The position numbers and the translations under genes are program-made. A DNA stretch of 60,318 nt, counting the filler, from Catajapyx aquilonaris (Eukaryota): the NCBI GenBank assembly GCA_000934665.2. It is 2 parts of 2 records of this genome, joined end to end, with 100 filler letters (N's around TTAATTAATTAA, not from the genome) between each part and the next. Parts side by side here need not be neighbours in the genome. Positions count along the whole stretch, not along the records: positions 1 to 31,228 come from JYFJ02004836.1; 1 more part is not named here. One strand, written 5' to 3'. This document shows positions 17,297 through 58,613 of the stretch, piece by piece. Below the pieces are notes generated by a model. That model ran no database searches. It saw only the letters and a program-made list of their open reading frames with translations, and was not told the DNA's origin. Position 1 is the first letter of the stretch. Each line of letters begins with the position of its first letter.

Positions 17297-17427
17297 TTTT
17301 ATTACAAGTCATGTGATTTTTGTGATTAACTTTTTGTGGCAAGATCCTTCTTTGTTCCTCCTTCACAGAATGTCCAAAATGTCAGGCACAAATAAATGAT
17401 TGGTTTCTTTTGCAGACAGCAACCAAG

Positions 17428-19560
17428 ATGATGCAAATCAGCAATCAGAACTTTAAGAGCATCTTTCAAGACCTGCAGACTGACCAGTTCCACAAGGACA
17501 TCAAGATTGTGTGTAAGAATGGAACCCTCTATGCACACAGGGTCCTTTTGGCCACAGGGACTCCATTCTTGAAGGGCTTCCTCAAGGATCCAGCAGCCGA
17601 TTTGATAATCCTACCAGATTTTCCACTGACCGTTGTCAGCAGGTGGCTAGGTTTAGTTTATGCTGGAGAGTTACTAAGTGAGGAACTGGACCTGCATGGC
17701 TTTGACGAGTTGGTGACCGCTCTCAGCATCAGTGGTGGTGGAGATAACAGCAGATCTTTGAATGCAGTTCCTAATGGTGGGGGAATAGAAGAGGCTTTGC
17801 TTGTAGATCAGAACATTATGATGGATGAGGAGCCGATGATTGAATCAGACCCACTGCTTGCCACAAATGATGGTCGGCATGGTAATGTGGAGGTCATGGG
17901 GATTGGGGGGACCCAGCTGGAAGATATTCTGGAGGTTAATCTAGATGAGGGAAATGAATCCACAAGGACTGAAGATGTAGAGATGGAGGAACAGGAGGAG
18001 GCAGAGGTTGGAGAAGAGCGAGTGAGTGTTTCTGATATTATGAAGTCATTGTCTGCACCCAAGCACAACACCAAGAAACGCGTCTACCGCTGCTATGTCT
18101 GCTTCAGTGAATTTCATTCTACCAGCGCATTGTTAGCCCATGCTAAGAGCCATCAAGGTAAACTCATCTATAGGTGCAACTTATGCCTCAAACCATTCTC
18201 AAATGTCAAGCAAGTGCACAGCCACAAGAAGCGCCCATGCAATTCTGACCCTGTGGCGTCAAAAGCAAAGAAGCCCTCTCATCTTTCTCACCACAAGCCT
18301 AAACCTAAGCCAAAGAATACTTCTGCCAAGGCAGGTGAACGCTACACTTGCCTACAGTGTGGTGATAGTCTTTCTTCAGATGAGGCCCTTCGAGCACATT
18401 ACCGTCACTGCGCCAAACGCCACGCGTCAGTGGACTCAGTAGAGGACCCAGACGTTCCTCAACTACCACCCAGAAATCTCAACAAATGTCCAGTGTGCTT
18501 CAAGGCGTTTTTGACCTCCAGTGCACTTAACCTCCACCTTGATGATGCTCACAGTGACCCATCTCCATCATACAATGGTGATGAAGATGTGGAGGTTCTT
18601 GAAGTTGTCACTCGATATACTTGCCTGATGTGCAAACGCAAGTTCCAAAGTGATAAGGAGCTTATGGAACACCGTGAGTTGCATGGAGACAGAACAGTAT
18701 TTACTTGTGAATTCTGTGCTGACACATTTCATACGGAACTGGACTACCATAAGCATGTCACTACCCATCCAACAGGCTCTCATGTAACCCATAAGTGCTT
18801 GGTCTGTGAGAAGGTGTTGTCACGTCGTCAGAGCCTGGTAGCACACATGCGTGTGCATTACATTTTACCTGTAGCAGGCACAGCATCCAAACCTCAGCCT
18901 TCTAATACATCAACAACACCCTCACATGCAATTCCACCTCAATCTGCCCCCTTCCAACACTACATGCAAGCAAACAATGAGCACCAGTGCTCTGTCTGTT
19001 CACAGTCCTTCCCCGCACTGTCTGATCTTGAGTACCACCACACTTCCCACCCACTGAACTTTCCCTTCCAGTGCAACCGCTGCAAGAACTCCTACAGCAC
19101 CGCCAAGGAACTTTTGTCTCATCCTTGCCGGGCCCAGACTCTTCCCTCAGCTGCTCCACATCCCCCAGTACAATCCAGAAAGTTGCCTTCTCCCCATACT
19201 CCTCCTCCTCCTCCAACATTTTCACAACCAACCCCTAACACTGCTCCCATGCAAGACGAGCACCCAGAGAGAGCCAACTCAAAAAATCCTACTTTTTGCT
19301 TTGTGTGCCATCGTGACCTGGGGTCATATGTAATGTATGTGCATCACAAGAAGTCGCATCCATCGGGTTCACGGTACCGCTGTGACGTTTGCTTCCGGTC
19401 GTATGCCACTGCACATGATTGTCATCAGCACCGTAGCCAACACTTCAGTGCAATGATCTACGCTTGCCATTTGTGCAATCGTTCTTATCCACTAAAGCCA
19501 GCCCTTAATAATCACCTGAGGAAGAGTCATGGTATTTTACAGGGCCGCCAAAGTTATTGA
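17428..19560 (+). CDS. BTB/POZ domain + about 12 C2H2/C2HC zinc fingers (paralog 2), single coding exon
   Basis: BTB signature (DIKIVCKNGTLYAHRVLL...WLGLVYAG), an acidic linker, then about 12 C-x2-C-x12-H motifs. The ATG at 17428 follows an acceptor tttcttttgcag ending at 17415. Confidence 0.92.
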   Translation: MMQISNQNFKSIFQDLQTDQFHKDIKIVCKNGTLYAHRVLLATGTPFLKGFLKDPAADLIILPDFPLTVVSRWLGLVYAGELLSEELDLHGFDELVTALSISGGGDNSRSLNAVPNGGGIEEALLVDQNIMMDEEPMIESDPLLATNDGRHGNVEVMGIGGTQLEDILEVNLDEGNESTRTEDVEMEEQEEAEVGEERVSVSDIMKSLSAPKHNTKKRVYRCYVCFSEFHSTSALLAHAKSHQGKLIYRCNLCLKPFSNVKQVHSHKKRPCNSDPVASKAKKPSHLSHHKPKPKPKNTSAKAGERYTCLQCGDSLSSDEALRAHYRHCAKRHASVDSVEDPDVPQLPPRNLNKCPVCFKAFLTSSALNLHLDDAHSDPSPSYNGDEDVEVLEVVTRYTCLMCKRKFQSDKELMEHRELHGDRTVFTCEFCADTFHTELDYHKHVTTHPTGSHVTHKCLVCEKVLSRRQSLVAHMRVHYILPVAGTASKPQPSNTSTTPSHAIPPQSAPFQHYMQANNEHQCSVCSQSFPALSDLEYHHTSHPLNFPFQCNRCKNSYSTAKELLSHPCRAQTLPSAAPHPPVQSRKLPSPHTPPPPPTFSQPTPNTAPMQDEHPERANSKNPTFCFVCHRDLGSYVMYVHHKKSHPSGSRYRCDVCFRSYATAHDCHQHRSQHFSAMIYACHLCNRSYPLKPALNNHLRKSHGILQGRQSY

Positions 19561-22268
19561 TAACTATGATGCCTGAGGTGCTCAGTGTGTTCTGCTTATC
19601 GGTTGTGTTTACTGGTTTCAAAAGTAATATCTCTTGTTGCTGTGCCCTGGCATTTCTTACATTGTGGCTGGCAGCATCATAACCTGGGATATAATCACCT
19701 CTCCAAGTTCCCTACAGGAAAACTTAAACAAGTGCCAGATTATAAGTTGTATTAACTTCATGCTTTAAACTGCATTCTACTCGTAATTGGTCATACTCCT
19801 CATGTGACTTGAGTCTACTTTATATAGAAATGAATGTATAGCATCACAGGCTGGTTAAATAAGTATGGGGAGGGTCAAAATGTGCCCAAAACGTTAATTC
19901 ATGGTGTGAGTGATCAATGGTGAATTAAGATGCGGTTCATTTGGAAGAGAGGGATTAGTGGATGAAGGATCTTGGAGCAGTAAACAAAGTCTGCCACAAA
20001 TTTACAAACGCTCGCCTTTTGTCATATTTTCATCAATAATAATATTGGTAATTTCTCGTTCTTCCCAAACCCCAAAAGGGTATGCCAGGAACTAAGCAGT
20101 GACAGGGATTAACTTCAAACAACCCAAGGCATAAATTATAGATTAATCCAACAAAATTGATGAGAAGAAACTTTGATGTAACAGAAATGCAGATGATCAT
20201 GGTAACAACTGGACATTTCTCATGTTAAGTATGGGTTATCCAATCATGACATTCCTCTGCTTTGCATATGGACATGAATACCTTCCTCAATTATTACCAT
20301 GTATGCAGCTTGGAAGAGAAATCTTTGGTAATTATTTTTGCAGAACATGTGTTTCATAATTAGATTTTTGCAGTTTGGAAGCAGTTTTATTATCCAGATG
20401 ACGAATGAAGGATTTTTCTTTTTGATAGCTATAGTTCATGCAGGGGGAGTGAGTGGAAAAACCCTCCACATGCTGCAAATCGTGACTTTTGATTTATGTT
20501 TGGCTTTTTATTATGTTTGTGTCACTAATGTTGCAGTGGAATTTCTCTGCGATGGATCCTGGATACCCAGAAACATGTCCATTAGAGAATTTGTTCTTGG
20601 TGTAATTTTTTCATGACCCGTCCACTGTAGGCTTGATTCCCATATTATGTTAAGTTACTTGCAGGTGATCATTGACTTGTGCATTATTGACTTTACTACT
20701 GTAAGTGCATTTGTGTGAGTCTAATTCCAGAGGCGCAACTGGATTTGTGTGGATAAATCTGCCAACATGTAGAAAAGAAAAGCTGTAACTGCAGTGTGTG
20801 ATAATGTTGAGGTGTGCTCAACTCGCTGCATTCACCACATGTGGTCAAGCAAACATTCCATGCTTGTGGAAAATGGTCACTGGAAGGTCTAGGAGAACGT
20901 CCTAATTTGTTATGTATTAGAATAAGCATTTGAGTGGATTTAGTGAGGAAAAAATGTTCCAGGGAAAAAAATAAAGATTTCAAGTGCATCTTATGTGTAT
21001 TAGTCTTTTCAATTTTGAGAAAGGATCTGGAAGTAGAAATAAGTTCTCCCAACACATCCCAAGTCAAGATATATTTGAAGTACGAAGACATTCTCGTACA
21101 TTCTTGAAATACTGCCTATCGAGCACTCTGCACATAGTGGAAACTTGTCCATACAATATTTTTGTTTGCTCCCAGTGGAAGATTTTCAAGGTATTTTGTC
21201 ACGTGTAGTGGGAACTTGATAATTACAGAACATTTTTGTCAAGAAGATTTATTATACCATGTCCAGATTTCAATGTATGGTCTACTCCGGATATCAGAGA
21301 CTTCAAGGGACAGTAGAAATCTGTATAAAATAACCAAGGTTTCCTATACCGAATATACAGACAGGGCATGGTATGGAAGTATGCTGGGACCAGCCTTTCA
21401 AGTTGGCTACAACTGAAGGTTGCTTATAATCGAGGCTCTTATATCCAGAGTCAACTGTATTACACACGAGCCAAAACAAAAGGTGCTCTCAAAATTAATA
21501 TTCCATGAAGGAATGTTTCCTCCAGCACGAGATGAAAACTTGGAAAGTGCTCCAAAATAATGCATCCAACAAAATTCCTGACCGAGATTTTTTTGTCTGG
21601 AATCAAAAATTGTCATCTTAATATTGCAACCATGAGTTTGGGATTCATGGCTGAAACATATTCACAAACTTTTACCATAAGGAACACTTGAGTTTTGCTT
21701 ATTGCAAGTTAAAGATGTCGGGTTTTTCACTAATTGTGAGTTAAACCTGGCAGTATACGCAATATGTCAGAAATATGTGATTCATGTGTGTCACATTAAA
21801 GCATCAAATGAGTGAGACAAGTTCATTTTTTTGGCATTGTTTGCCTTTTATTTATGAAATAAAAAATAATCTTTTGCAAATATGAAGACATTGAGGTTGT
21901 GGTATTGCCAGAAAATCATAACAGAGTGCAGTATAACAGCCGTTACCCAAGGTGGCTGTTTGTCCACAAGACTGCATGCCAAACAATTCGTGTGACAGTA
22001 GTTTTATGTTCCAACAAGAAATATTCACTGCCTTTACAAGAGGCCATACTCGTTCTCACCATTTCTGGGGAAGTCCCACCGGATACCTCCCTTCCCATGG
22101 ACACCCATACCAGGCACCAGGGATCAGGAGCTATCCGTAAATCAAGGGTGGAGAGAGGCTCATTCTGATTTCCAAGAACTTTGTCGAAACTTCGAACCAA
22201 GCTCTACTTCAAGCCCTTGCCACAATTTAGCGGAATATTCCAGAGTACTAGGCAGAAAGTATCCATAG

Positions 22269-23164
22269 CCTCCTGAGACCCGGCGTCCAGTATACTGGAC
22301 ATCTGGAAAAGTTTTTTTGGCGCCAACTAGTGATGCCAACAGAAGTGTAATCTGTTGGTATCCCATGATTACAATCTGGCCTCAATAGCTGTAGCCACCT
22401 AGTGTCGAATATCTGACTTGGGCCGAGAAAATTAAATCGCGGAAAAAATGGCGGATGCCGCTGCAGAAGCAAGGCGCTCATCTGATAAGTTTTATTTTTT
22501 TCCTCATATTTAGAGTGCGATTTTCGTCAATGTAGGGAATGTCCTGGGATTCGCAAGGAATGTGCATTAGAAAATACGAAAAAAATTGTCTGTGACCATC
22601 TTTGTTGCTGTAGAGATCTGGTAATTTTCTTTTCTTCCTGAGACAAAATGTCCATTTGAATGGACATCCTATTTTTATTTTTTTTAGCTGAATGGGTGTG
22701 ACTTTTCTTTAAGTGCCTGTACCTATACACCCACAAGGAAGTGCGCTTTTCACTATGCAGTTCAGTTTCAAAATCTAGAATAGCAAGGTACCACTTTAGC
22801 GGGTAAGAAGGGAAGGAGCAAGTCCCATGCCTGGAGTGGTGGCGTTAAAAAATAATTTCATTTATCTTTAATTGTCTTCTGAGAGGAATTGCTACCACGA
22901 ATTCCACAAATGAATTTAAAAAACATTGTTTTGAGGATAGAGCACTATGTGAGTGATCCATTAAGGGGTATTTCAATTTTCAGCTCTCATCCGTTCTGCT
23001 TCTGTAGCAGCAAATTAATGCCAATGTTCTCATTGGTTGTTTGTCACCATTTTTGTGGATATTTTAAAACTAAAATTTTTTTCTCGTTTCTTATTGGGAA
23101 AATGTTCAGAAAATGCAATTGGAACTGATATTGCGTTACTCAATTCTTCTCGGGTCTCAGGAGG
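22269..23164. mobile_element. piggyBac-like non-autonomous element with ATAG target duplication
   Basis: Perfect 14-bp TIR cctcctgagacccg, with ATAG directly on both flanks (22265-22268 and 23165-23168). Confidence 0.7.
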
Positions 23165-23820
23165 ATAGTCAAAATTTATACTTTTTACCATCTTTACAAA
23201 CGTGAACTCCTGTATTTGGATACCTGCTTCTACCTATTCCTCATCAGATGAATGGGTCTTGCGTCTCAAAGCTCTTGTTGTTTCAAGATTATTGTAGCAA
23301 CCTCTCAGGGGTTAGGCCTTAGTGCGCTAGGTATAAGAGTGGGACGGATACCACAGCTAGGATGACTTGTACAAGTTGGAAATGCCCCGGAGCTGGAGGT
23401 TGAGCTTGGGTTCATGTTGATTATGTGAAGAACAATGAGTAAATTAAGATATTTCAAATACTGCTGATATGCCAGTCTGACCTAAACTGACACAGGTAAG
23501 AATACTGCACTGATGCGAAGAACAAATGTTGCATTTTACACACCACCATGTAATAAATTGATGTACAAAAGCATAATGTGCAGTATTGCATATCTCTACA
23601 CCTTAAGAAGTTCCAGGGACATAATAATTATGCCATAAAACTGTTGAGATTTTTGATTTTTGAGTGCCTCAGAAGTAGTGTTGCTCAGGATCAAGCTACC
23701 AATAAATGCAGTATGTGTCTGAAACAATACCTGAACCATCCCATGCAATTAATCCACCAACATCCATTAATTCTATCTTCATGTCCTGCTACATGAATTA
23801 AATATTCATGTTATTATTAA

Positions 23821-24685
23821 CCCCCTGGCTTTCATGGGGTCATAAGTGACCAAAGGGATATCAAATCTGGAGGTCAAAAAAGCACTGTGCATAAGTACTT
23901 GTGATACACTCGGATATTTATTGCATGCTTTCATTTGTGCAGTTGTATCTTGGAAGTATCAGCTAATGCAAACCAGAAATTGCACTCTTCGCAAACTGAA
24001 GTAAAATACATTTTTCCAATCCATTCCACAAAATGGTATGTGCAGAAGAAATTTCTCTTGCATATATGACAAAAATGCAGGAAAATGGTTACACCGGGAT
24101 CAAACAAATTTCAGTAATGGACTACTGTTATGGTCCAGAGAATCTACAGTAGATTTTCTACTACATTATACTTTTACTGTAGTCAATGGGCACAAAAAAT
24201 ATGACCCATAGAATTTTGACATTAGGAATTTCTGTGCAGGCCTCTGTGACGTTTCCACAAGTACAATGGTATTGCACATTCATAAATTATATGAAGATAT
24301 GGCTAAGGAATTGTCTGAAACTCAAACATCAAGTGCAGTTACCAGACTGCAATCCTACACGTGCATGAGTCAGCAATCCTGCCACCACTTTTCTGTAACA
24401 ACACAATGTATGAGAAGGTCATATGAATGAAATTAGTAACTGTTGTATTATTTCCAGTTCTGGCCAGGTGGTCCTGTCTTGGAAATACCTAAAAGGGTTA
24501 CAAAACTCACGTTTGAGCAAGTACCTGAGGCCCATGAAAGCAAAAAGCATGGCAACAATGCAAAATGGTGGTCCTGCTCAGTTTAAATGGAATTCTTTTA
24601 TTCTTCACAGTGTTTATTATTTGAGAATAAATAATATAAAAACCTCACACACATGTGCTATTCTTTTATAACATGTACCAGGGGG
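23821..24685. mobile_element. piggyBac-type MITE
   Basis: TTAA-ccccctgg ... ccaggggg-TTAA termini. Confidence 0.6.
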
Positions 24686-25081
24686 TTAAAGAGTGATCCC
24701 ATTCAATCACCAATTCTCTACAATACTTTCTAAACGCAACTGCTATAAATCAGTGTCTCTAGTAGTAAACGCATTCTGCCACCCAAAGGCAAAATGTCCT
24801 GTATGCATTTTTAAAAATATCAATTTCAAAGCTAGCCACTTGAAGCTGCACTTTGTATATTTTTGACTGCGGCATGTGACCAACAAAACCTGAGGTATTG
24901 GCAAAACAAAAATTGCGATATGAAGAGTCACAATGACTTTCCTCTCAACTTCACCAAGAGTAAATGTAATGTAGTTTGCCTTTGAGCAGCAGTATTATCC
25001 TCTTCTTGCACTTAAAATGGCCTTAACTTAACACAATGTTCAATTGGCAGTAGTCACATCTTGTCTTCTGGGGGTAGTTGC

Positions 25082-25721
25082 TTACTTTCCAGCATGCATT
25101 TTCTGGTGCTTCTGCAAGTGTGTCTTCTGGGTGAAGTCCTTCCCACAGGTGTCACATGCAAAGGGCCTGAGGCCCATGTGGATCATATCATGTCTTTGCA
25201 GAGCTCCTTTCTGGGTGAACCCCTTTCCACAGAGGGAACAGGTGAAATGCCGCCTCTCCTCCACACTGCCCAGGTGGATTCGCCTGTGGTATGCTAACTT
25301 GCACTGATACACAAAGGCTTTCCCACATGAGTCACACCGATGGGGCTTGCGTCCTGAGTGGGCCCTCTCGTGTCGGCTCAGCTGGGCCCTTTTGCCAAAC
25401 CGCGCCCCACATGTCACACACTCGTGAGATTTCTTTCCCCCCTCCTCTGAGCTTCCTCCACTGGCTGAACCTGGGCTGCCCCCGTGGTCCAGTCGATGGG
25501 CATGGAGTTCTGCAGCAGTGGTAAAACGCTGCCCACACAGGGCACAAACCTGCAGAGGTGGTTGCTCTGTCTGGGGTGGTGGTGGTGGCTGCTGGAGGGA
25601 GCCAGGGTGCTGCAGGTGGACATCCAGGGTCACACCATTGCGGGAGGTCACTACTTCTGCTTCATATGCCACCTCACCAGCATTCTGCAGGTTGGTGAGC
25701 TCTTCAGAAGTTTCCATTCCG
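25082..25721 (-). CDS. C2H2 zinc-finger protein, terminal exon with 5 fingers
   Basis: Five fingers: CALC, CVTC, CDSC, CSLC and CDTC, with TGEKP-like linkers (SGRKPH, MGLRPF). An acceptor tctgattcctcctacccaaacag precedes 25721. Confidence 0.9.
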
Positions 25722-26348
25722 CTGTTTGGGTAGGAGGAATCAGAGTGTTAATAATAATAATCTGCCACCTGCCTACATACAGTCAAAATGAAATGACATT
25801 GATCCTAACACAAATGTTGATCTTCATTAGATATTGCTTGCTCACTGTACTCGTAAATCTGAAGTAAATGAAGCTTTATCTGCGAAATGTGTCCACTCTG
25901 AAGGTATCATGTAAATTAGAGTCAGCATTTCAGTACAAATGTTGACATTTGCAGCCCAAGTTTATGGTTTTGTCCTTCCTTTCATCTGCATGAAAACGTC
26001 AGGTAAAAGGCTGCTTGTTAATGCAAACTAACAACAATTTATAGTGCAGTACAGTACTACTGTTACAAGGCTTCTGGTACAACTTTTTTCCCTTTATTCT
26101 CTCAGAATAATGATACAGAGTGCAGTTGTAAAAAAAAAGTTATGATTTGTCTTCAAGAGTGTAAGCTGATACAAGATGTGTTTGGTAAGTTTGCAGCCTT
26201 TTATATTGAACAACTGACAAATGTATGAATCTAATGATTTCTTCAGGTTTCAACAGTTACTATATAGGGCCCTGCAAAAACATAGTCTGTGCAGTATCTC
26301 AATTTTTTTTGGATTTAGAGACACTGATCCTTGAAGATGTCAAATTAC

Positions 26349-26499
26349 CTGGCAGCTTGAAGTAGACTGTTCCTAGCTATAGCCCCAGTTAGCACAGGCA
26401 TGTGAGAAGTTGCAGGGCTGCTGTCACACCAGTAGGTAACAGCAGTTGTCAACTCCTCAAGCGTGTGAAAACGCCTGGCATACAAAGGGTGCTTCAAAG
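26349..26499 (-). CDS. Candidate upstream exon of the zinc-finger gene, derived from a mariner transposase C-terminus
   Basis: Acceptor ttttttgttctgcccag and donor CAG/gtaatt. The open frame (A)LKHPLYARRFHTLEELTTAVTYWCDSSP...LQAA joins in phase to the exon at 25721. Confidence 0.6.
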
Positions 26500-26955
26500 C
26501 TGGGCAGAACAAAAAATCATATTAAACCATCAGCCAAAATGAAATTCTTAACACTTCAGTAGAGTGAAATCTGCCTGTAACAGCCTACAGGTAGGCGGAA
26601 ATTTGAACATTTGTTTTGTCCCAGCACAGGATTCTCACTGAATTTCTCTGTCACAAAGGAAGGGATTCTATTCACTGCTGGAAAGTTTAGAACAGAGAAA
26701 CTCTGCTAGGTTTAACGTTTGCAAAAGGCCTAATTACAACTGAATAATCTCTTATTATGGCATGACAATATTAAATTAGCTGAACAAAACTTAATAAGAT
26801 TCTGGAGGCATAATCACTTGTTGCAGTGCAGACAAATGCTCCAACTACTGTTATAATGTAATTTCCGATTTTCAAAGCATAAAATTCCGCTTCATCAAAG
26901 TTTTACTTTCATGTGCATTTGAAAAATAAAGGTCATAAGAAAAGGACTCTAGTAC

Positions 26956-27057
26956 CTTCCATTGCAACTTGTTTGATGTGAGGGGGTGCATTGTCAATAT
27001 GAAGGATGGCGCTCTGCTTGCTACCAGACTTCTTATTCTTTAAAACTGGCCGCTGAC
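26956..27057 (-). CDS. Candidate upstream exon of the zinc-finger gene carrying a DNAxxH transposase motif
   Basis: Acceptor ctcactacag and donor AAG/gtacta. 102 nt, phase 1-1, encoding GQRPVLKNKKSGSKQSAILHIDNAPPHIKQVAME. Confidence 0.5.
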
Positions 27058-27765
27058 CTGTAGTGAGCATCTCAACAAATCAGCTGCCAGGATGGATCAT
27101 GCACAATGCCAGTGATTAGGAAGGCTGATTGGCGCAGCTGGCTCTGAAAAATTATTAAAAGTTGTAACATCTCCAAGCTACCCTTAATATCATCAAACTA
27201 CTTGCTAAATAGAACCCCTGTGCAAGATCGTACACATACCTACGAGTACAAAAGGATATTTGAATTGGCAATAAGTAACATGTAATCTATTTCATAGAAT
27301 CATAAGTGACAGTTTTATTTGACAATGCACAACTACAAAAATCAGGTATTATCTGATCTAAAAATTTTAATGAAATATCATACAACTTGCAACCACCCAT
27401 TATGGTGATTAAAAAGTTGAAAAAAATTGCAAAATTAGAACAGGCCTATCCAAGAATAGATGTTCACAACTCCAACTCTCTTTAGGGGGAGGGGGGAATT
27501 ATTTAACTTTTGCTTTTGATATTATCAGGAACCTCCTCCACTATAAATTATTCAAGATTAACTTAAAAATCCTGGAGGAATTATACATTATTCACAACCA
27601 CTTTTCCACCTTGAAATATCATTCCAGCTCAAAAGTACGATCTATAAGGCCGGAAATTCAAAATAATAATTTCTCCTAAAAATTAACATGACCATAACAT
27701 TAACCATAGCTATAGAGTGTGAACCACAGATGTTTAACTCCCACATGACATAAACAGCATGTAAC

Positions 27766-27851
27766 CTGAATTTCTTTCCAGACTGTCAATGTCTGTACCA
27801 TAGTGCAGACCATTGTTGATGATGTTAAAGCCTTCCACTTGATGTACCTCA
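27766..27851 (-). CDS. Candidate upstream exon of the zinc-finger gene
   Basis: Acceptor tgttttgtgcag and a weak donor CAG/gttaca. The open frame EVHQVEGFNIINNGLHYGTDIDSLERNS is phase-compatible with both neighbours. Confidence 0.4.
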
Positions 27852-28665
27852 CTGCACAAAACAATTTTTTGACAGGTGTTAATATACGAGGAATTCAAAG
27901 GAGACGAGTTGATGGCGAGAGTAGGCCTACTTGATAAAGGTTTGAAAAATGTGGTATCAAAATATGGCTCAAAAAATGTTCAGATTGATATATGATTTGC
28001 ATCGAGTGGTAGCTCAAGATCTGATGGTTATGCAGTGGCAGGATATTGGTTATGTTGATTTTTTTGGAGGTACTAATTTAACTTAATTTATTTTAAACCA
28101 AATAGTCCTTCTCACAATTAGACAAAGTAATCTATACTCCCCCCCCAACTCTCAGGTTCAGAACTTTTTATATACAACATTCTCGCTTGCACATGTTTAT
28201 TTCCCAGCTACATACAATTCATTCACAATTACATACTTTCAATGCACTTAGTAAGCCCTCAAATCTGCCATCTGAATTTGTATTTGCCACTATCATATTT
28301 TAAAGTTCAAATTTACACCATCCAAAGTCACATAACAATTTTCTAGTGGCACAGGTAGAAAGAGGGTGTTAGGTAATCAGGAAACGGAAAAAATCAAACA
28401 AATGCACATGCTGTGTGTGTAAAGGTGTGTGACAAAAGCATTTTCAATGAGAGTGGCATTTGCTCCTATTTCAAAAATTGCATTTAGTTCAAGCTGACAT
28501 TGTTTTGATAATATAACATGGTGCACTGTCTTCTCAGAACCACTTGTGCTGGATAAATGTGAAAATAATAAAACATTTGAAATTAATTCAAGTACCCTGG
28601 CTTGCATCGGGCACAAAGATCCACTCGTTCGAGTGTCATTAACCACAATTACGTCTACGTTGCCA

Positions 28666-29343
28666 TCATGTTAGTCTACCCATATACTTGACCCTGGGCA
28701 ACCACTTCAACATTGGCCACTGGACCAAAATATAATTTGCAAAAGGTAGCAGAATCCACCCAGATAATGACAGGGATGTGACTCTGCAAATGCTCTCCAC
28801 AAAGATGACCTTTGCCCCTTTACCTATGCCAGCAAATCTGGCCAGAAATGCAAGGAAGCATATGGGAACACATGTTCCAGGCCCATTGGCAAGAACCAAA
28901 TCTGGATTGAAGCTTCGCAGTACTGGCCATGAGTGACGCAGTGAGATGAGAGTAGAATATACAGCAGTTAAGTACGATTGTCCCACATGTCTGCTGCGAG
29001 GGATTTGATGTGTTTGGTATGAGCCACATTTTGGCCCATACATAGAGGACCAATTTGACTCTAGGCATTCCACTCGGATCCTGCTTGACATGTCAGTATC
29101 TGCCAGCAAGTACAGACGCGGGGAGTAACTACAGGGGTTGACGGCACTCATAAGGCGAAGCATCTCAGCAGTGTGACCTCCAGATCCAATCACAACGAGG
29201 GTTCTAACAGTCTCACCAAGCTTCCTCTTTTTCTTCCCCAATGCTGCATCACCAACCCATGTACACGCAAATGTCCATAGCAGGCGCAGGAGAAACAAGC
29301 CAGAGAGAGCCAGGCACGTGGCAGTGCACACCGAGACTTCCAT
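28666..29343 (-). CDS. ALG14: UDP-N-acetylglucosamine transferase subunit ALG14, intronless
   Basis: An N-terminal hydrophobic helix, then the ALG14 motifs GSGGHTAEM, IPRSRHVGQS, PDLVLANGPGTCVP, FVESICRV..LSLSG and VQWP. An AG acceptor sits immediately before the ATG. Confidence 0.96.
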   Translation of the reverse strand: MEVSVCTATCLALSGLFLLRLLWTFACTWVGDAALGKKKRKLGETVRTLVVIGSGGHTAEMLRLMSAVNPCSYSPRLYLLADTDMSSRIRVECLESNWSSMYGPKCGSYQTHQIPRSRHVGQSYLTAVYSTLISLRHSWPVLRSFNPDLVLANGPGTCVPICFLAFLARFAGIGKGAKVIFVESICRVTSLSLSGWILLPFANYILVQWPMLKWLPRVKYMGRLT

Positions 29344-29654
29344 CTATAATCACTTATAGCAAGTATTCCAGTGTGTTGTGTCTTTTAGTTTTGGCTACAG
29401 AATCTAGAGCTCAGTACTTCATGGCATAACAGCCACTTCCCTATGAAATCATGGGAGAGTTTGTAGATTCCACAGGAACCTAGGAAAAACAATTAAGGGG
29501 CATTCACATACTGGTCGTGCGGCACCAAAAGGGAGCAAATGTGATCTCGGATAAAGGATGTCAGACGTTAGCTTGACAGTGTGAATAGCATGCTTTTGGT
29601 GCCCATTCCCAATGTGTGAATGCAGCTTGAGAGAGACCTTCTGCACTGCTTCAC

Positions 29655-29715
29655 CTTTCTAGTCCTGTGTGTGCCCCACTGCCCTCCAGAGGCGGGAAAT
29701 GAGTGGTGACCCCAG
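29655..29715 (-). other. Candidate shared upstream exon for ALG14 and the zinc-finger gene
   Basis: A long polypyrimidine tract ends in ggacag and the donor is AAG/gtgaag. The frame GVTTHFPPLEGSGAHTGLE is in phase with the exon at 27851. Confidence 0.4.
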
Positions 29716-30203
29716 CTGTCCAGGCAGGCAGGGCAGGCGAAGAGAGAAAAAGAGAGAGGGGGGGTCAGGCTCCCTCTCCTTCACCTCCGGGACCAGGCAG
29801 CCTCGGGGCCCAACCCTGGGCGCAGGACACCCCTCTCAGGACCCTGTCTGGGACTTCAGCGGAGAGGCAGGGGCAGCTTTCACCTCTCGGGATGGGAAAC
29901 GAGATGGATAGGCCAAAAGAAAGAAGCAAGGAGAGAGGCGGAAGGCAGCAGGAGAAGCTTCGGGGATCTGGCCGCAGGGAGGCGGCCAGGCGGGGGAGGC
30001 GGGCCGGACTCAGGCGACGCTGCTCGGAAAGGACTGGAACTCAATATATTATAGTACTGGGTCAAGACATTGGGGTGGCCTCACGCGCAGGATACGAGAC
30101 ACAAACTGGACCCGGCTTAGATCCGTGCCAGATCCGGTCTAGACCCGACCCAGAACCGACACATTATTTGGCTGTAAGCAGCCCATTGCCATCGTTGACG
30201 GCT

Positions 30204-30471
30204 TGACGGCATCGTTTTGTTTACCAACTCCTAGTCAACGGAAATCTGCCGAACACAACCCCTGGAACCCCCCACTTTTCAAGTTTCCGTGGATAAAATG
30301 CCATCAACACTCAACAATGGGAGCCATGGGAGCACAGTCATGTTCTTTTTGTTGACACTATTAGTATTGTTTCATGAAGCCATCTCCATGGGGGAAAAAG
30401 TGGGAGGTTCCACGTGTGGGTTCGGCAGATTTCCGTTGACTAGGAATTGGTACACAAAACGATGACGTTAA
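30204..30471. mobile_element. MITE with long TIRs
   Basis: catcgttttgtttaccaactcctagtcaacggaaatctgccgaac pairs with gttcggcagatttccgttgactaggaattggtacacaaaacgatg. Confidence 0.75.
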
Positions 30472-31228
30472 TGGCAAGTTAGCATGTCCTGCCTGTAGAG
30501 TACCCAAGAGAATGAAATGTCAGTATTTTAAGGGCGATAGCCCTTAAGTAAGACCGTAGCATAGATTTCAACAATGTTTCAACAATGAATTTTTCCTACT
30601 TGTTCTTCTTCTTCTTGTTGTTGTTCTTGTTACGTTTTTTTTATTCGCCCTAACTCAAGTTCTGCTGTAGGTAGAGCTTCCAAATTTTGAACACAGATTT
30701 CCACCGTCGTGACTTGATTTCCTACCATTTACACTTTTACTTAATTCGGCTTGGGTGCAGTTTAGAGCCGCAAAAATCTTGCAGGTTTCTATACATTTTC
30801 TGAATCTACTCGATGAGCTGAGTCGAATGACACTATTCCTTGTGTGCGGAAATGTTTGGTTGAAGAGTAATTGAATTTTGAAATTGCACGTTTTAACAAT
30901 GAATAAATTGAAAGTAAACAAGTGTTCCTTTGTTGAGACTGTTCACTCCCATTGTTGCGTCAGGTGATTCTCCGTGGAAACGTGAGAGATTCCATGGAAA
31001 CGTGCTGTGAGGGATGCTGAATGATGTAAATAAACGGTTATTCTTGGTTCGTTGGACATAGAACGAGAGTGTAGGAGTTTAATTTAACATCATTCAGGAG
31101 CGTCCATGGCCGAGGCATTGCATCGGTGCTTATCTAATACATATTTCTAGACGTATGTCTGTCTCTCCTGTTATTCGCTATGCAAATCCGTACGGAGGCC
31201 CCGACATATGCCCCAGGGGTTTCACTAG

Positions 31229-31328: not shown

Positions 31329-31719
31329 TAGTTGCTGCTACTGCATCCAGCAAACATGTAAAGTGAAGGGCATTTGGGCATTCAATATGACTCGTTTAAG
31401 GTTTTAAAATCTACACTGGCTCAATATTAACGGTAGACCTACAGCAAAACCTGGCTATCATGAAATCACTCTGTTCCACAACACTTTTCTATAGTGGTCA
31501 GGTTTTCATTACACTTGAAGGAAATACACTAAATATTCGGTTCTCTTCTGGACCCAAGTTCAGTAACTGACAATTTTATGCCATATCAATGGTCCATTTC
31601 CAGGTTTTACTGTGTGCTATACTTGGTATGAAGAATGCCAAATGACAAGGAAGGGTGAGAGGGGTGCAAAGTATCTTCTTACTTAAATAAACCATAATCA
31701 TCCCATATAATTAGCTCAC

Positions 31720-32164
31720 AATGTCAATGAAGTAACAGCCTGGCTCAATGGTAATAACCATCCTTGGCTCCATGACCCTGGCAGTCCTAAGTGACCTCTG
31801 ACCAGGAAGGGTTGGCCTCTCTGGGTGCCCTTGCAGGTAGCCTCCCACATCATGGGTATCGCACCCAAGGAAGTGTCCAAGTCCATGAGGCATAAACACT
31901 GCTGCCAGGTTGACTTCCATCATCTTATCCACATCACCCTTCACTACGCCTCCCTTCTTCAAACATTCCAGCAAGACCCGGTTGGCTAAAAGGTGCATGT
32001 CCAGCCAAGAAACACCAGGCTTCAGGGCTTTCAGAACAGCACGGTTGGCATCCAGGACAGCATTGTAAATCAGCCGCTGATCAGCCGTATACTTGCCATT
32101 GGCAGGGTATGAGCAGGTAATGTCTGACGTGTAGCAGTTGTATTCTGCGCCCATGTCAAACAAG
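31720..32164 (-). CDS. PEPD: Xaa-Pro dipeptidase (prolidase), exon 8
   Basis: [40 protein letters not shown] and [10 protein letters not shown] contain the M24B metal ligands. Boundaries are AG/GT. Confidence 0.95.
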
Positions 32165-32586
32165 CTAGAAAAATATTAATGTACAGAACACTGCCTGAGT
32201 AGACCTACATATTTTAGTGAAGCTTGGCCTAAATAGCACCACAACCTCCTTGAAAATATCAGGCCTAGAAAAGGTGACCACCTATAGTAGGTTGACTTGA
32301 GTCACACAGCAGCCTGATTGTCAGAGTTTGAATTATCACATAACATCAGCTCCAGTATATCCTCTATCCTGCTAATAATAAATCGCTTATTGTTAAGTTA
32401 CTCTGGGCAAATGAAGAGAAAGAGGTTGCTCCAATTGGCTTATGATGGGCCGATTGAATTACTGTATCATGTTTCTAGCAACAGGCTTTTGACACAAACT
32501 GTGAAACAGTAATGCTTCCTGTAGACTTCGATTGCACCTCCACTTGCTTCTTTACATGTGCAATCTAACTAAATATAAAACAAATA

Positions 32587-33092: not shown

Positions 33093-33276
33093 TATATACA
33101 CATCACCTCCACAATCCAAGACTCAAAATAATGTAAAACAATGCAGCAAGAGGTCACTGGACATCCTTCTTCCTCAGTAGAAGTTATGCATGACTAGCAT
33201 GAGATCATTTATTTTCTACAATTAAAGTTAATACATCCCCATCTAAATGGTAGATAAGAATCCCCATCATACATAC

Positions 33277-33546
33277 CACATATCTCCATCCTTCACTGTG
33301 CGATCATTGGGAGCCCCAGCATGACCATAATGGAGGATAGCCCCATTCTCTCCTGATCCGCAGATGCAGGTGTATGACATATTTCTGCACCCCCCATTGT
33401 AGTAAGAGTAGTGCTGAAAGATGGATTCGCACTGGTACTCCTTCATCCCAGGACGTATCTTGCGCATCACCTCCATGTGAGCCTTTGATGAAATTCGGTT
33501 GGTGTAACGAAGAACTTCTAACTCCATGTCTGTCTTGTGCACACGA
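33277..33546 (-). CDS. PEPD: Prolidase, exon 7
   Basis: [23 protein letters not shown]...[33 protein letters not shown], phase 2-2. Confidence 0.95.
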
Positions 33547-33979
33547 CTGGATAAGAACATATCAAACTTTCTGTTATTGAACAACAACAACAACAACAAC
33601 ATCACGACATTTCCCTATGAGGGGTAGTCAGCGATGAAGGGAGACGCAAGCTAACCCAACATATGAACTAATAAAACTCATGAAAATAAACCTAAAAACA
33701 ACCTGTCCCACCCCCCACCCCTGCCCACCTCAGACATCACCTTATCCTCAGACATATTTACTGTTATTTATTTTCTGTTATTGAAGCTTCTGTGAAATTA
33801 ATTTCTATACGAACAGTTGCACATCAATAACATGAAGGCACATTTTGTTCAGAGTTATATCACAGCTGTCCTATGAAATCCATTCATATGGTGTTTGGAC
33901 TAATGTAAGAATTTGCATTCGCAAAGTTTAGTTCACTTCTAACTCTTCACATTCACTTAAAATTATTATGGGAACTCAC

Positions 33980-55037: not shown

Positions 55038-55475
55038 TCACACATCCACACCGCACAATCCCACAGGTGTACAGGTCCCTTCATCCAGTTCCCTCAGCAC
55101 TTTTTTATGCCTCTGTCCGCCACTAGCCACGGCCAATCCTTCCTGCAGCCGCCTGACTGCCTCCTTGATCAGGCCTCCTTCTCGCAGAAGCACCTGCAGC
55201 AACTCATAAGGATCCTCAGGAACCTCCTTCCTGCCCCTGAGCTGCCCAGCATCTGCCCCCGAATTGGCCCCTACAGATGGCACCCTGTATGGTGAGGGCC
55301 TCTGCCTCCTCTGGCACCTTGACTTGAGAGAGGTGAGGCGCAAGTTCTCCTTGATCTCCGCCACCAGCTGGTCCACATCCCTGGAGAGGAAGTCTTGTCC
55401 AGTGGCAACCGTCTGGAAGGCAGCCGCAGCAGTTGCAGCACTAGCTACTAACGGGTCCTCCTCCTTGCTCGGCAT
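55038..55475 (-). CDS. FRAT: GSK-3-binding protein of the FRAT/GBP family, 145 aa
   Basis: All three conserved FRAT blocks are present in order: DVDQLVAEIKENLRL, RQRPSPYRVP and DPYELLQVLLREGGLIKEAVRRLQ. The start MPSK resembles the vertebrate start MPCR. An acceptor tatttgcag precedes 55565. Confidence 0.9.
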   Translation of the reverse strand: MPSKEEDPLVASAATAAAAFQTVATGQDFLSRDVDQLVAEIKENLRLTSLKSRCQRRQRPSPYRVPSVGANSGADAGQLRGRKEVPEDPYELLQVLLREGGLIKEAVRRLQEGLAVASGGQRHKKVLRELDEGTCTPVGLCGVDV

Positions 55476-56975
55476 GTTCTGCTGGGTAGGTGAGGAGTCC
55501 ACCGCCACTTGTAGGCAAATCAGGGTTGCAATTGCTTCTTCTTGGACTGCTGAACTCTTTTGAATCTGCAAATATACAATTAAGATGTTATTAATTACAA
55601 AAAATTTCCCACGGTCTGATATCGAATTTTGTGGGGCAACACCTTGACGCACAATCCCATGTGTAGGCCTACTGCCCAATGCACTGTGCTGGTACATACT
55701 GGTGGCACAATTCAAATAAAAACCAGACTGAAAGTACACACCGGCCCCAATTTCGAACGTAAACAAACCTACAAAAAATATCGATCCCACACCTACCAAA
55801 CGAAATTCCGCTGCAGAGTTATTGTGCCCCGAATTCAATGTCCTTTGTAAGCGGACCCCCACCCCCCATTTAAATCCCCACGTTGGAATTCCAAAAAGTA
55901 AACAAAGCATCCTCACAAAAAACCAGAATAGTGAGACGAGGGGTAGGGGGGTGTTGGGTGGTAGTGACGTAGCTAGGCTCCTACCTCCTTTCCTGTGCAA
56001 TGGCCGCGGTGTAGTAGATAGGAAGTTCCTCTCTTGTAGACTAGAATCGCACAGGAACACTGCTTAATTTGTGTAGTGATTGCACACGTTTTGTTGAGGC
56101 CGAGGGGAGGCGGGGCAGGTCGGGTTGTGGTGTAAGGGGGTTGGTGGAAGGCACTGGGGGAGGCGAGATCGCGGATGGATGCGTCCTTCCTGTGCCCCGA
56201 CCTGGGCCTCAATGAAAACAACGGGACTAGGGGACCTCCACTCCACCACTATGTTTTGGTACCGATCACTACTCGATTCTAAAACACGGCTGTATCCATG
56301 CGCACGGGGGGGAGGGGCCACGACCCAAACAAACACGTAGCTGCTATTGGCAGTAACATGCAGTATGCAAAATTATGATGATGTAAGCTGCATGATCAGT
56401 GCAGATTCACTATAACAGTGCCGTCTCAAAAAGTGTTAAACTACCATAAGCGTCAAATTATAATATTTAATCAGACTCTAACTAGAGACTCAAAACAGTG
56501 GCATTACTAAATAGTCTAAATAGTGCACTAGTGTAAGTGCGTAACTACTAACGCTACTACTAGCCAGCTACTAGCATACTAATAAAACTGCTACTTTTTC
56601 CATCTCTTTGTGTATCCTAGCATGTCCGGTAACCTACGCGCCGACAAAATAGTCCGTGTAAACAAACAGGGCTAAAAGCCCGGAACGGTCTCAGAGATGA
56701 GACCTCTCCTCAAAAAACAAGGTGTCGCTGAAATTTGGCTTTGAATATCTCCTAACAAGAGTCTGGGGCCACCCTTGCACAAAGGTAAACAACAACAAGG
56801 AAGAGCCTAGCCCAAGGTTGTTGTAGAGTTAGAGAGTTCTGCACTGTAGCCGCAACGGCGCTAGAAAACATTTGTAATAGTTGGCCACTAGGTGGCCATA
56901 GTAGTGTATGGCGGGCAGGTTTGAGATTGGTTTATAAATTCTAATGTTTAAAAAATTGTTTATTTAGGTTTAAAA

Positions 56976-57383
56976 ATGGACAGCCAGGTGCCCAGCACCT
57001 CGGGCATCTCGGTGAGCAATGGCAGCAGTGAGGACCCTCGTATTAATACCAGGCTGTACGTGGGTCTGCTGCCGGTCAACTACTGCGTCCAGGATTTCCT
57101 CAACCTCTGCCGACCTTACGGGGTGGTGCGAAGTGTGAAGATATCATTCAACAGTAGGAATACCAAGGCTTACGGTTTTGTCACATTCGCACGACCTCAG
57201 GATGCCCAGAGCTGCCAGAATGCACTTCACAACACCCTGCTGGCTGGACAGGTCATCAAGGTCAAGCATGCGACCAAGAGTGGGACTAGGACATGGAGGG
57301 CAGTGTTTTCTATTCCGAGTTCTTTGCCCTTGCCCGCAGCCATCCTCTATGCTGAAGCCAGGCACGTTTCCACACAGATTTAG
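56976..57383 (+). CDS. Single-RRM RNA-binding protein
   Basis: RNP2 LYVGLL and RNP1 KAYGFVTF, followed by AQSCQNALHNTLLAGQVIKVKHA. The ATG is in an aaaaATGg context after an acceptor-like tttatttag. Confidence 0.8.
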   Translation: MDSQVPSTSGISVSNGSSEDPRINTRLYVGLLPVNYCVQDFLNLCRPYGVVRSVKISFNSRNTKAYGFVTFARPQDAQSCQNALHNTLLAGQVIKVKHATKSGTRTWRAVFSIPSSLPLPAAILYAEARHVSTQI

Positions 57384-58144: not shown

Positions 58145-58613
58145 ATGAACAAGGTAGTATAGGCCAATAAGTGTATGGCTAATAAGGTGTAAATGTTTGA
58201 CGTTGTGTTACTTGCAGATGCTTCTCGCCGTCTTCCTGGCCCTTGTGGCGTGCTCCTCGGCTGGATACTACGAAATGACCCCGGCGCCCACTACCTACGG
58301 CTACGAACAGCCGAAGTACGAAAAGCCATCCTATGGTTACGAGCAGCCCAAGTACGAGGAGAAGCAGTCCTATGGTTACGAGCAGCCCAAGTACGAGGAG
58401 AAGCCATCTTATGGTTACGAGCAGCCCAAATACGAGAAGCAGTCCTATGGTTACGAGCAGCCCAAGTACGAGGAGAAGCCATCTTATGGTTACAAGCAGC
58501 CCAAGTACGAGGAGAAGCAGTCCTACGGCTACGAGCAGCCCAAGTACGAGGAGAAGCAGTCCTACGGCTACGAGCAGCCCAAGTACGAGGAGAAGCAGAC
58601 CTATGGTTATTGA
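58145..58613 (+). CDS. Secreted Tyr/Glu/Lys-rich tandem-repeat structural protein (2 exons: 58145-58153 and 58218-58613)
   Basis: An MNK micro-exon with a GT donor and a ttgcag acceptor completes the signal peptide MNKMLLAVFLALVACSSA. Eight units of YGYEQPKYE(E)K(P/Q)S follow. A TATA-like cataaaa lies near 58057 and AATAAA near 58649. Confidence 0.85.

Follow-up and report, generated by a model that had tools for sequence, protein, structure and literature searches.

The window analysed here, a stretch of 60,318 nucleotides (nt) with filler included, comes from the genome of Catajapyx aquilonaris (GenBank assembly GCA_000934665.2) and joins two parts end to end, the first of which, positions 1 to 31,228, belongs to record JYFJ02004836.1. 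The locus of interest lies on the minus strand of this first part (Table 1). Read in the direction of transcription, it consists of a non-coding leader exon, an exon encoding ALG14, two small exons (A and B) with kinship to the C-terminal catalytic half of mariner transposases, and a final exon (C) encoding five C2H2 zinc fingers. An earlier note, made from the sequence alone, had proposed that the last three exons form a chimeric gene in which exonised transposase fragments provide the N-terminus of a catalytically dead, lineage-specific transcription factor. The results of the present analysis argue, with a probability of roughly 0.7, that a mariner relic has been exonised in sense onto the five-finger gene, where it would supply an N-terminal tail, and that the resulting transcript shares its leader with ALG14.

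The three minus-strand segments on which the proposal was built, 27057-26956, 26499-26349 and 25721-25082, are all flanked by AG and GT, as verified both in the sequence and by script, and joining them by coordinate gives a single open frame. Evidence for transcription came from the contigs of one public run, X1, the type of which is not on record; the contigs were aligned to positions 19600-31200 of the window. One contig (record 4; 1,594 nt, 0 mismatches to the window) covers 24497-25721, 26349-26499 and 26956-27143 and skips the 627 and 456 bases in between, both gaps being of the GT..AG type on the minus strand; at either joint the shorter flank has 151 letters. X1 leaves the bins 25792-26178 and 26566-26952 without cover, but this contig spans them; other uncovered bins, 30049-30435 among them, carry no weight here. 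A contig that lacks introns at canonical splice sites means that the spliced RNA exists or has existed, whatever the type of run, and from the exon-only contigs we infer that X1 represents complementary DNA. Both junctions foretold by the earlier note, 26956/26499 and 26349/25721, occur exactly in this contig, and its claim that the segments are open and can be spliced in phase is borne out by their AG/GT bounds and the one joined frame. The first exon had been drawn correctly at its donor (26956) and wrongly at its start (27057), as the acceptor in use lies at 27145-27144 and the exon runs from 27143. The gene had also been described as invisible in the open reading frame (ORF) track, and rightly so: exons A and B lie in stop-to-stop frames of 48 and 58 residues, which fall below the usual listing limit of 60 residues and are therefore overlooked by ordinary ORF listing.

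Table 1. Features of the locus in the order of transcription, with positions in the window.
Feature	Positions	Strand	Basis and details
Non-coding leader exon	29655..30020	-	Donor GT 29654-29653; the boundary at 30020 is only guessed, from the TATA-like run at about 30050
ALG14 exon	28182..29479	-	225-codon uninterrupted frame 28666-29343; skipped by the zinc-finger transcript
Exon A	26956..27143	-	Record 4; acceptor AG 27145-27144, donor GT 26955-26954
Intronic relic tail	26500..26521	-	Reads Y-D-F-L-F-C-P in the exon B frame; from sequence, frame and profile alignment
Exon B (151 nt)	26349..26499	-	Both record 4 joints; donor GT 26348-26347
Exon C, zinc-finger exon	24497..25721	-	Coding 25721-25085, stop 25084-25082, 3' untranslated region (UTR) at least to 24497

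In the joined messenger RNA (mRNA), a frame of 301 codons opens at ATG 27070-27068, which is the second ATG of the mRNA and stands in the context GAGATGC. Exons A and B encode residues 1-88 of the predicted product, the codon of residue 89 straddles the B/C joint, and the remainder is encoded by the finger exon, which is the last exon and also holds the stop codon. The first ATG of the mRNA, likewise located in exon A, has a weak context (T at -3) and opens an upstream ORF of only 6 codons, 9 nt after which the long frame starts, with C at +4; an in-frame TGA (27082-27080) lies upstream of ATG 27070-27068. The five C2H2 fingers of exon C were recognized by Pfam zf-C2H2 (E, the expect value, 3.7e-22; 5 stretches within 25082-25747). 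No close homologue of the finger exon was found among proteins of 116-371 residues, the best having 40% identity over 60% of the query. The G+C contents of exons A and B are 0.48 and 0.51, compared with 0.34-0.35 in the three flanking introns, and in nearby non-exonic DNA 44 of 8,666 windows of 88 codons (0.5%) are free of stops. The G+C contrast and the open run of 88 codons are hints of constraint on exons A and B. The fact that the element is recognizable only in exons would agree with selection or with a loss of its middle by rearrangement.

Since the two small pieces matched no transposase in Pfam, the PDB or three large protein searches, a custom mariner profile was built. Members of the reference set were picked solely for a match, in metagenome contigs, to a degenerate DNA pattern encoding P-D-L-A-P-x-D-[FY]-x-L-F, a motif that is absent from the spliced product. 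The pattern was found at no fewer than 107 metagenome loci (at least 107, with 101 motif-bearing ORFs among those listed), and a stricter version of it gave no match in viral contigs. Of the five longest reference ORFs, each had a match to Pfam Transposase_1 (E 1e-28 to 2.9e-11), and in three HTH_48 was matched as well. The spacing between the second and third catalytic aspartates (Asp) was 34 in all 47 reference ORFs with both Asp motifs, the other 54 having no upstream motif in the same ORF. Segments reaching from 60 residues before to 85 after the motif were collected, one per locus, and dropped if shorter than 60 residues or containing X; the 84 segments gave a profile of 157 columns. With every HMMER filter disabled, this profile was compared with the 1,994 stop-to-stop pieces of at least 20 residues that the six frames of the window contain.

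The two pieces named beforehand came out on top. The frame of exon B, 26348-26521 on the minus strand, ranked first of the 1,994 (E 9.2e-4, 16.2 bits), and the frame of exon A, 26936-27079 on the same strand, ranked second (E 0.11, 9.5 bits), followed by a third match at E 1.6. A second profile, made from 45 ORFs of at least 100 residues, returned the same first and second ranks, with E values of 0.0048 (exon B frame) and 0.029 (exon A frame), and these were its sole matches below E 1. The score of each piece was reached by 0 of 3,000 shuffles, the maxima being 6.5 and 7.7 bits. Exon A aligns to columns 22-51, which surround the strand H-x-D-N-A-P-x-H that bears the second catalytic Asp, and the exon B frame aligns to columns 77-113, beginning at the third Asp, which is the D of the D-F-F-L-F-P consensus. 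Both pieces are collinear with the profile: they share strand and genomic frame and follow each other as they do in a transposase, and within the product columns 22-57 and 84-113 of the 157 are matched. The earlier note would have been refuted by the lack of any match to transposase profiles. Pfam models gave none, whereas the profile from 84 mariner fragments ranks the two pieces first and second, and thus neither this check nor that of the junctions refutes its reading.

Searches with tblastn, in which about 42 reference ORFs of at least 110 residues served as queries, gave the same picture. Among the best 40 rows, 21 fell on the frame of exon B and 14 on that of exon A, the other 5 being isolated; the identity was 31-52% over 23-42 residues for the two pieces, and 36-52% over 23-36 residues for exon B. 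The pattern H.DNA..H occurs once in the six frames of the window and in 0 of 100 shuffles; DNA.PH is likewise found once, where shuffled sequence has it 0.02 times on average. Small as the individual scores are, likeness to mariner by mere chance is ruled out in practice. The ESM Atlas neighbours of the two pieces are mostly unnamed, and the sole named families among them are PF01359 and PF13358, which we regard as a lead only. In the reference ORFs, the PF01359 match stops before or near the second Asp, and this family thus covers little of the pieces encoded by exons A and B.

Three of the isolated tblastn matches were set aside. The match at 27497-27670 on the plus strand came from one query (E 0.004), is not among the second-profile matches below E 20 and was considered noise, and those at 28347-28306 (one query, E 0.005) and 26622-26684 (E 0.039) were likewise judged to be noise. 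The intron upstream of exon A contains a stretch, 27488-27749, that is represented by a separate X1 contig of low depth (record 5; 262 nt, 1 differing letter). Its overlap with 27497-27670 could reflect a second, inverted relic, or noise.

Only a small part of the transposase is left in the transcript. Exon A encodes H-I-D-N-A-P-P-H, with the codon of the second catalytic Asp at 26995-26993, and exon B encodes L-K-H-P-L-Y-A-R-R-F-H-T-L-E-E-L and onwards, the segment that follows the third Asp. The codon of the third Asp itself (26518-26516) lies 17 bases inside the intron, and its genomic distance from the codon of the second is 159 codons, compared with 34 in mariner. The donor of exon A is situated within the mariner frame aligned by tblastn. 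At the acceptor of exon B the codons of D-F-L-F-C-P, corresponding to the reference consensus D-F-F-L-F-P, are rich in T and C and make up the polypyrimidine tract and the CAG acceptor. No Pfam helix-turn-helix (HTH) match was found on the two pieces. Of the features that mark a member of the mariner family, the HTH_48 domain, the full catalytic triad, a match at the gathering score to Pfam Transposase_1 (PF01359) or DDE_3, and terminal inverted repeats beside a TA duplication are all lacking, while kinship to the C-terminal catalytic half is present. The product contains no whole transposase domain, DNA-binding or catalytic, and there is no Pfam domain on either relic piece. With only the second Asp retained and no HTH, it can neither act as a transposase and cut DNA nor bind transposon ends. 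No second copy was found, nor was there a look-alike stretch in the other scanned genomes.

These observations largely uphold what the earlier note had read into the locus. The Y-D-F-L-F-C-P just upstream of the 26499 acceptor is indeed present in the same frame (7 codons, in the 58-residue frame 26345-26521), and the recruitment of this acceptor from inside the transposase ORF is supported by the T/C-rich motif codons that form the tract and the CAG. The statement that splicing removes the Y-S-P-D-L-A-P-D segment holds for the third Asp, the codon of which is intronic, but a Y-S-P-D-L-A-P remnant is not recognizable in the DNA. The description of the product as catalytically dead agrees with the intronic position of that codon and with the fact that no relic of the first Asp or of the HTH is detectable. 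Finally, splicing and mariner descent both support the view that exonised transposase fragments lie at the N-terminal side of the transcript.

Upstream, the finger transcript appears to connect to ALG14. The last 30 letters of record 4 lie on 29655-29684, directly before the GT of the leader donor (joint 27143->29655), and a contig spanning the ALG14 exon (record 6, 28182-29477) is joined by 32 letters to the same donor (joint 29477/79->29653/55). The encoded protein matches Pfam Alg14 over nearly the whole profile (E 6.1e-53, positions 2-171 of 171), and an AATAAA is found ~20 nt before the contig ends at 28182. It is probable that the leader exon is common to the ALG14 and zinc-finger transcripts; an end of 30 letters is what a branch in a 31-mer assembly graph would leave. 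No ATG occurs in the last 106 nt of the leader, and by eye there is none between about 30050 and 29655. The region 29700-30060 is G+C-rich and ATG-free, has the TATA-like run near its upstream end, and is probably the shared promoter and 5' UTR. One promoter seems to serve two unrelated proteins by way of alternative splicing and polyadenylation. An ALG14 retrocopy in the first intron of the finger gene was considered and is not claimed; the sequence after 28182 shows no poly(A) remnant. Further upstream than the shared promoter, the minus strand carries a Peptidase_M24 gene represented by two exons, at 31711-32175 (E 5.6e-30) and 33267-33614 (E 8.6e-17).

Taken together, the data suggest a history in which a DD34D-type mariner would have inserted, in sense orientation, into the intron between the leader, which ends at 29655, and the single coding exon of the finger gene. 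The element would then have decayed beyond recognition save for two islands, both of which are now exons: exon A would derive from the region, a strand and a loop, in which the second catalytic Asp sits, and exon B from the segment right after the third Asp. The splice signals appear to sit within the old transposase frame, the clearest case being the D-F-F-L-F-P codons that would serve as the exon B acceptor. Translation from the ATG at 27070 would yield ~88 residues of transposase debris in phase with the finger exon. DNA binding, if any, would be carried out by the fingers, and the relic would be at most an N-terminal tail with a possible role as a spacer, an interaction surface or an effector. 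What has been observed at the locus is the pair of junctions, the open frame and the kinship of exons A and B with mariner; the order of these events, the sharing of the leader, a start at the first ATG of the long frame and any function of the tail are what we infer from them.

Several observations weigh against this history. The Pfam search gave no transposase match for the 48- or the 58-residue piece at E up to 10, and a phmmer search of the PDB gave no match for either. Word-indexed searches, made for longer proteins among 5.8 billion with E values up to 10 admitted, yielded 7 and 3 candidates, none of which was scored, and phmmer with the 58-residue piece against 1.84 billion representatives found only 2 matches at E up to 0.001, both to internally repetitive proteins (5 matched stretches) that were rejected as spurious. 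The custom-profile scores are themselves small, and that of exon A is not significant when taken alone. With the full-length profile of the 45 ORFs, no relic of the HTH or of the first Asp was detected on either strand. A relic of H-P-P-Y-S-P-D-L-A-P was not detected by profile on either strand of the intron, and SPDL.P has 0 matches in the window. In mariner some 19 codons lie in the place of the 456-nt intron between exons A and B, which is hence ~400 nt longer than expected, an excess that the proposed history does not account for. A search for terminal inverted repeats in 25700-28700 gave only arms of 14-25 nt with 72-88% complementarity and no meaningful position. As for the transcript, the RNA support comes from a single run of a single study and consists of contigs, from which isoform proportions are not readable. 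The joint between exon A and the leader rests on 30 letters, one below the 31 that the software counts as a bridge, and the sharing of the leader is therefore held to be probable. In addition, the long frame contains two later in-frame ATGs of stronger context, GCAATGG at the end of exon A and GGAATGG at the start of exon C, so that part or all of the relic may be 5' UTR.

This last point gives rise to an alternative in which the mariner exons are real and belong to the 5' UTR, with a start of translation at either the exon C ATG, which gives 211 codons, or the distal ATG of exon A, which gives 265. Both of these have a purine at -3 and G at +4, in contrast to the ATG at 27070 with its C at +4 and its position shortly behind the upstream ORF; the finger exon alone resembles complete small zinc-finger proteins, and the N-terminal part shows no sign of conservation. 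A scanning ribosome, however, meets the ATG at 27070 first after the upstream ATG of weak context, the 88 codons are open over two exons where few of the nearby non-exonic windows would be, and both splices keep the fingers in phase with the former transposase frame, all of which makes an untranslated relic rather unlikely. The opposite extreme is that the relic exons have been kept by selection as the N-terminal module of a young zinc-finger regulator, with a switch at the promoter and leader between ALG14, a housekeeping subunit of glycosylation, and the finger protein by mutually exclusive splicing and polyadenylation. We regard this fuller version as tentative and doubtful.

It is also conceivable that the spliced RNA is an unselected by-product of the ALG14 unit, arising by read-through or exon skipping into cryptic exons and the finger gene. 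Compatible with this are the 5' end of the finger contig on the ALG14 leader exon, the lack of any visible promoter of the finger gene's own, and the fact that the contig comes from one run of one study. On the other hand, the joints are clean GT..AG joints in a contig with no mismatch over its whole length, and the contig is a standing one rather than a rare variant, as contigs drop rare forms. Exons A and B differ from the introns in G+C content as ordinary exons do, and with the stop codon in the last exon nonsense-mediated decay is not expected. A mere by-product is consequently distinctly improbable. Still less can be said for the possibility that the mariner likeness is due to chance and that the exons stem from unrelated intronic sequence, despite the absence of support from Pfam, the PDB and three large protein searches and the low bit scores of the custom profile. 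Pieces that had been named in advance came first and second among 1,994 under two profiles, for which the chance expectation is ~2 in 1,994 x 1,993; neither score was reached by any shuffle, order, strand and frame are all right, and 35 of the best 40 tblastn rows fall on the two pieces. Chance is accordingly a very remote explanation, and the exonisation of a mariner relic in sense onto the finger gene is the reading that we prefer.

Other features of the window were noted in passing. Two long single-exon frames on the plus strand, 272-1258 and 17326-19560, each encode a BTB/POZ domain together with C2H2 fingers, and just after the second of these an X1 contig covers 19600-20190. Downstream of the zinc-finger gene, at 22309-23469, many X1 contigs pile up with 90-99% likeness and numerous variant letters, and this region looks like an expressed multi-copy repeat. 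Farther away, a frame at 55038-56063 on the minus strand has a short GSK-3_bind match (E 5.8e-7, 27 residues), and its divergent neighbour at 56952-57383 on the plus strand carries an RRM_1 domain (E 7.6e-12). An open frame at 58158-58613 on the plus strand encodes about ten tandem copies of a unit of 11-12 residues rich in Tyr, Glu and Lys; it has a signal-peptide-like start and matched no Pfam family.

Fusions between host genes and transposases are known, and the locus shares traits with several of them. SETMAR is a primate SET domain fused to the Hsmar1 mariner transposase and, as in the present case, mariner-derived coding sequence is spliced onto a host gene. SETMAR, however, has retained the transposase in full, with its DNA-binding part and most of its catalytic domain, whereas only one of the three catalytic acids and no HTH is left here. 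The comparison with SETMAR drawn in the earlier note was overstated for this reason, as two fragments of ~30-37 residues, and no transposase domain, have been retained. The locus has more in common with the exonisation of transposable elements. In antisense Alu exons, a T-rich tract becomes the polypyrimidine tract; here too, pieces of a decayed element would have become internal exons by way of cryptic signals with a T-rich run as the polypyrimidine tract, and the fragments may add residues to the host protein. The differences from Alu exonisation are that the element's own old frame appears to be read, with both exons in phase with the host, and that the T-rich tract would come from the codons of a conserved motif instead of the complement of a poly(A) tail.

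A further frame of reference is the study of host-transposase fusions by Cosby et al. (10.1101/2020.05.07.082677). There, a transposon in a host intron is joined to the host gene by alternative splicing at sites borne by the transposon; in 8 of 9 traced cases the captured site was an acceptor a short way upstream of the transposase ORF, and whole domains, mostly DNA-binding ones, are kept. One of these fusions, KRABINER, joins the KRAB exons of bat ZNF112 by splicing to the Mlmar1 mariner transposase (10.1101/2020.05.07.082677). KRABINER has a mariner within an intron of a zinc-finger gene, transposon coding sequence on exons of its own that are spliced to host exons, a splice site derived from transposon sequence, and parental and alternative transcripts that share a promoter; the present locus has the same exon arrangement and probably the intronic origin and the common promoter, while its exon B acceptor, which lies within the aligned D-F-F-L-F-P codons, may come from the transposon as well. 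The feature expected of a fusion gene, transposase-derived exons separate from host exons within one spliced frame, is likewise present here (301 codons). KRABINER keeps a full-length transposase with HTH and DD34D core, whereas the C. aquilonaris transcript holds two fragments of ~30-37 residues and no whole domain; its splice sites lie inside the ORF, the relic is N-terminal and the host supplies the DNA-binding part. Caenorhabditis F-box genes are reported to have captured a functional Tc1/mariner HTH domain that has spread through the gene family (PMC12062965). They too have Tc1/mariner coding sequence at the N-terminal side of a host gene but differ from the present locus, where no HTH has been kept and a second copy was not found.

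Given that no domain has been kept, that the splice sites lie inside the ORF and that the host provides DNA binding, the locus is better filed as an exonisation of transposon fragments, a known kind of event, than as a capture of whole domains such as in SETMAR or KRABINER. What would set it apart is that both exons are, by their alignment to mariner, read in the old frame of the element. The locus offers a transcript-backed case in which the coding debris of a DNA transposon appears to have become part of a host regulator while still being read in the frame it once had, and in which the codons of a conserved protein motif, D-F-F-L-F-P, would double as a splice acceptor. It would widen the picture of transposase capture from whole domains to fragments below the size of a domain, and genes of this kind slip past annotation based on ORFs or on Pfam. 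The sharing of a leader with ALG14, if confirmed, is of separate interest for the annotation of gene structure. Should the reading of a selected N-terminal module prove true, fragments of the catalytic core, and not the DNA-binding domain, would have been co-opted in this organism, with the codons of a transposase motif having supplied the splice acceptor.

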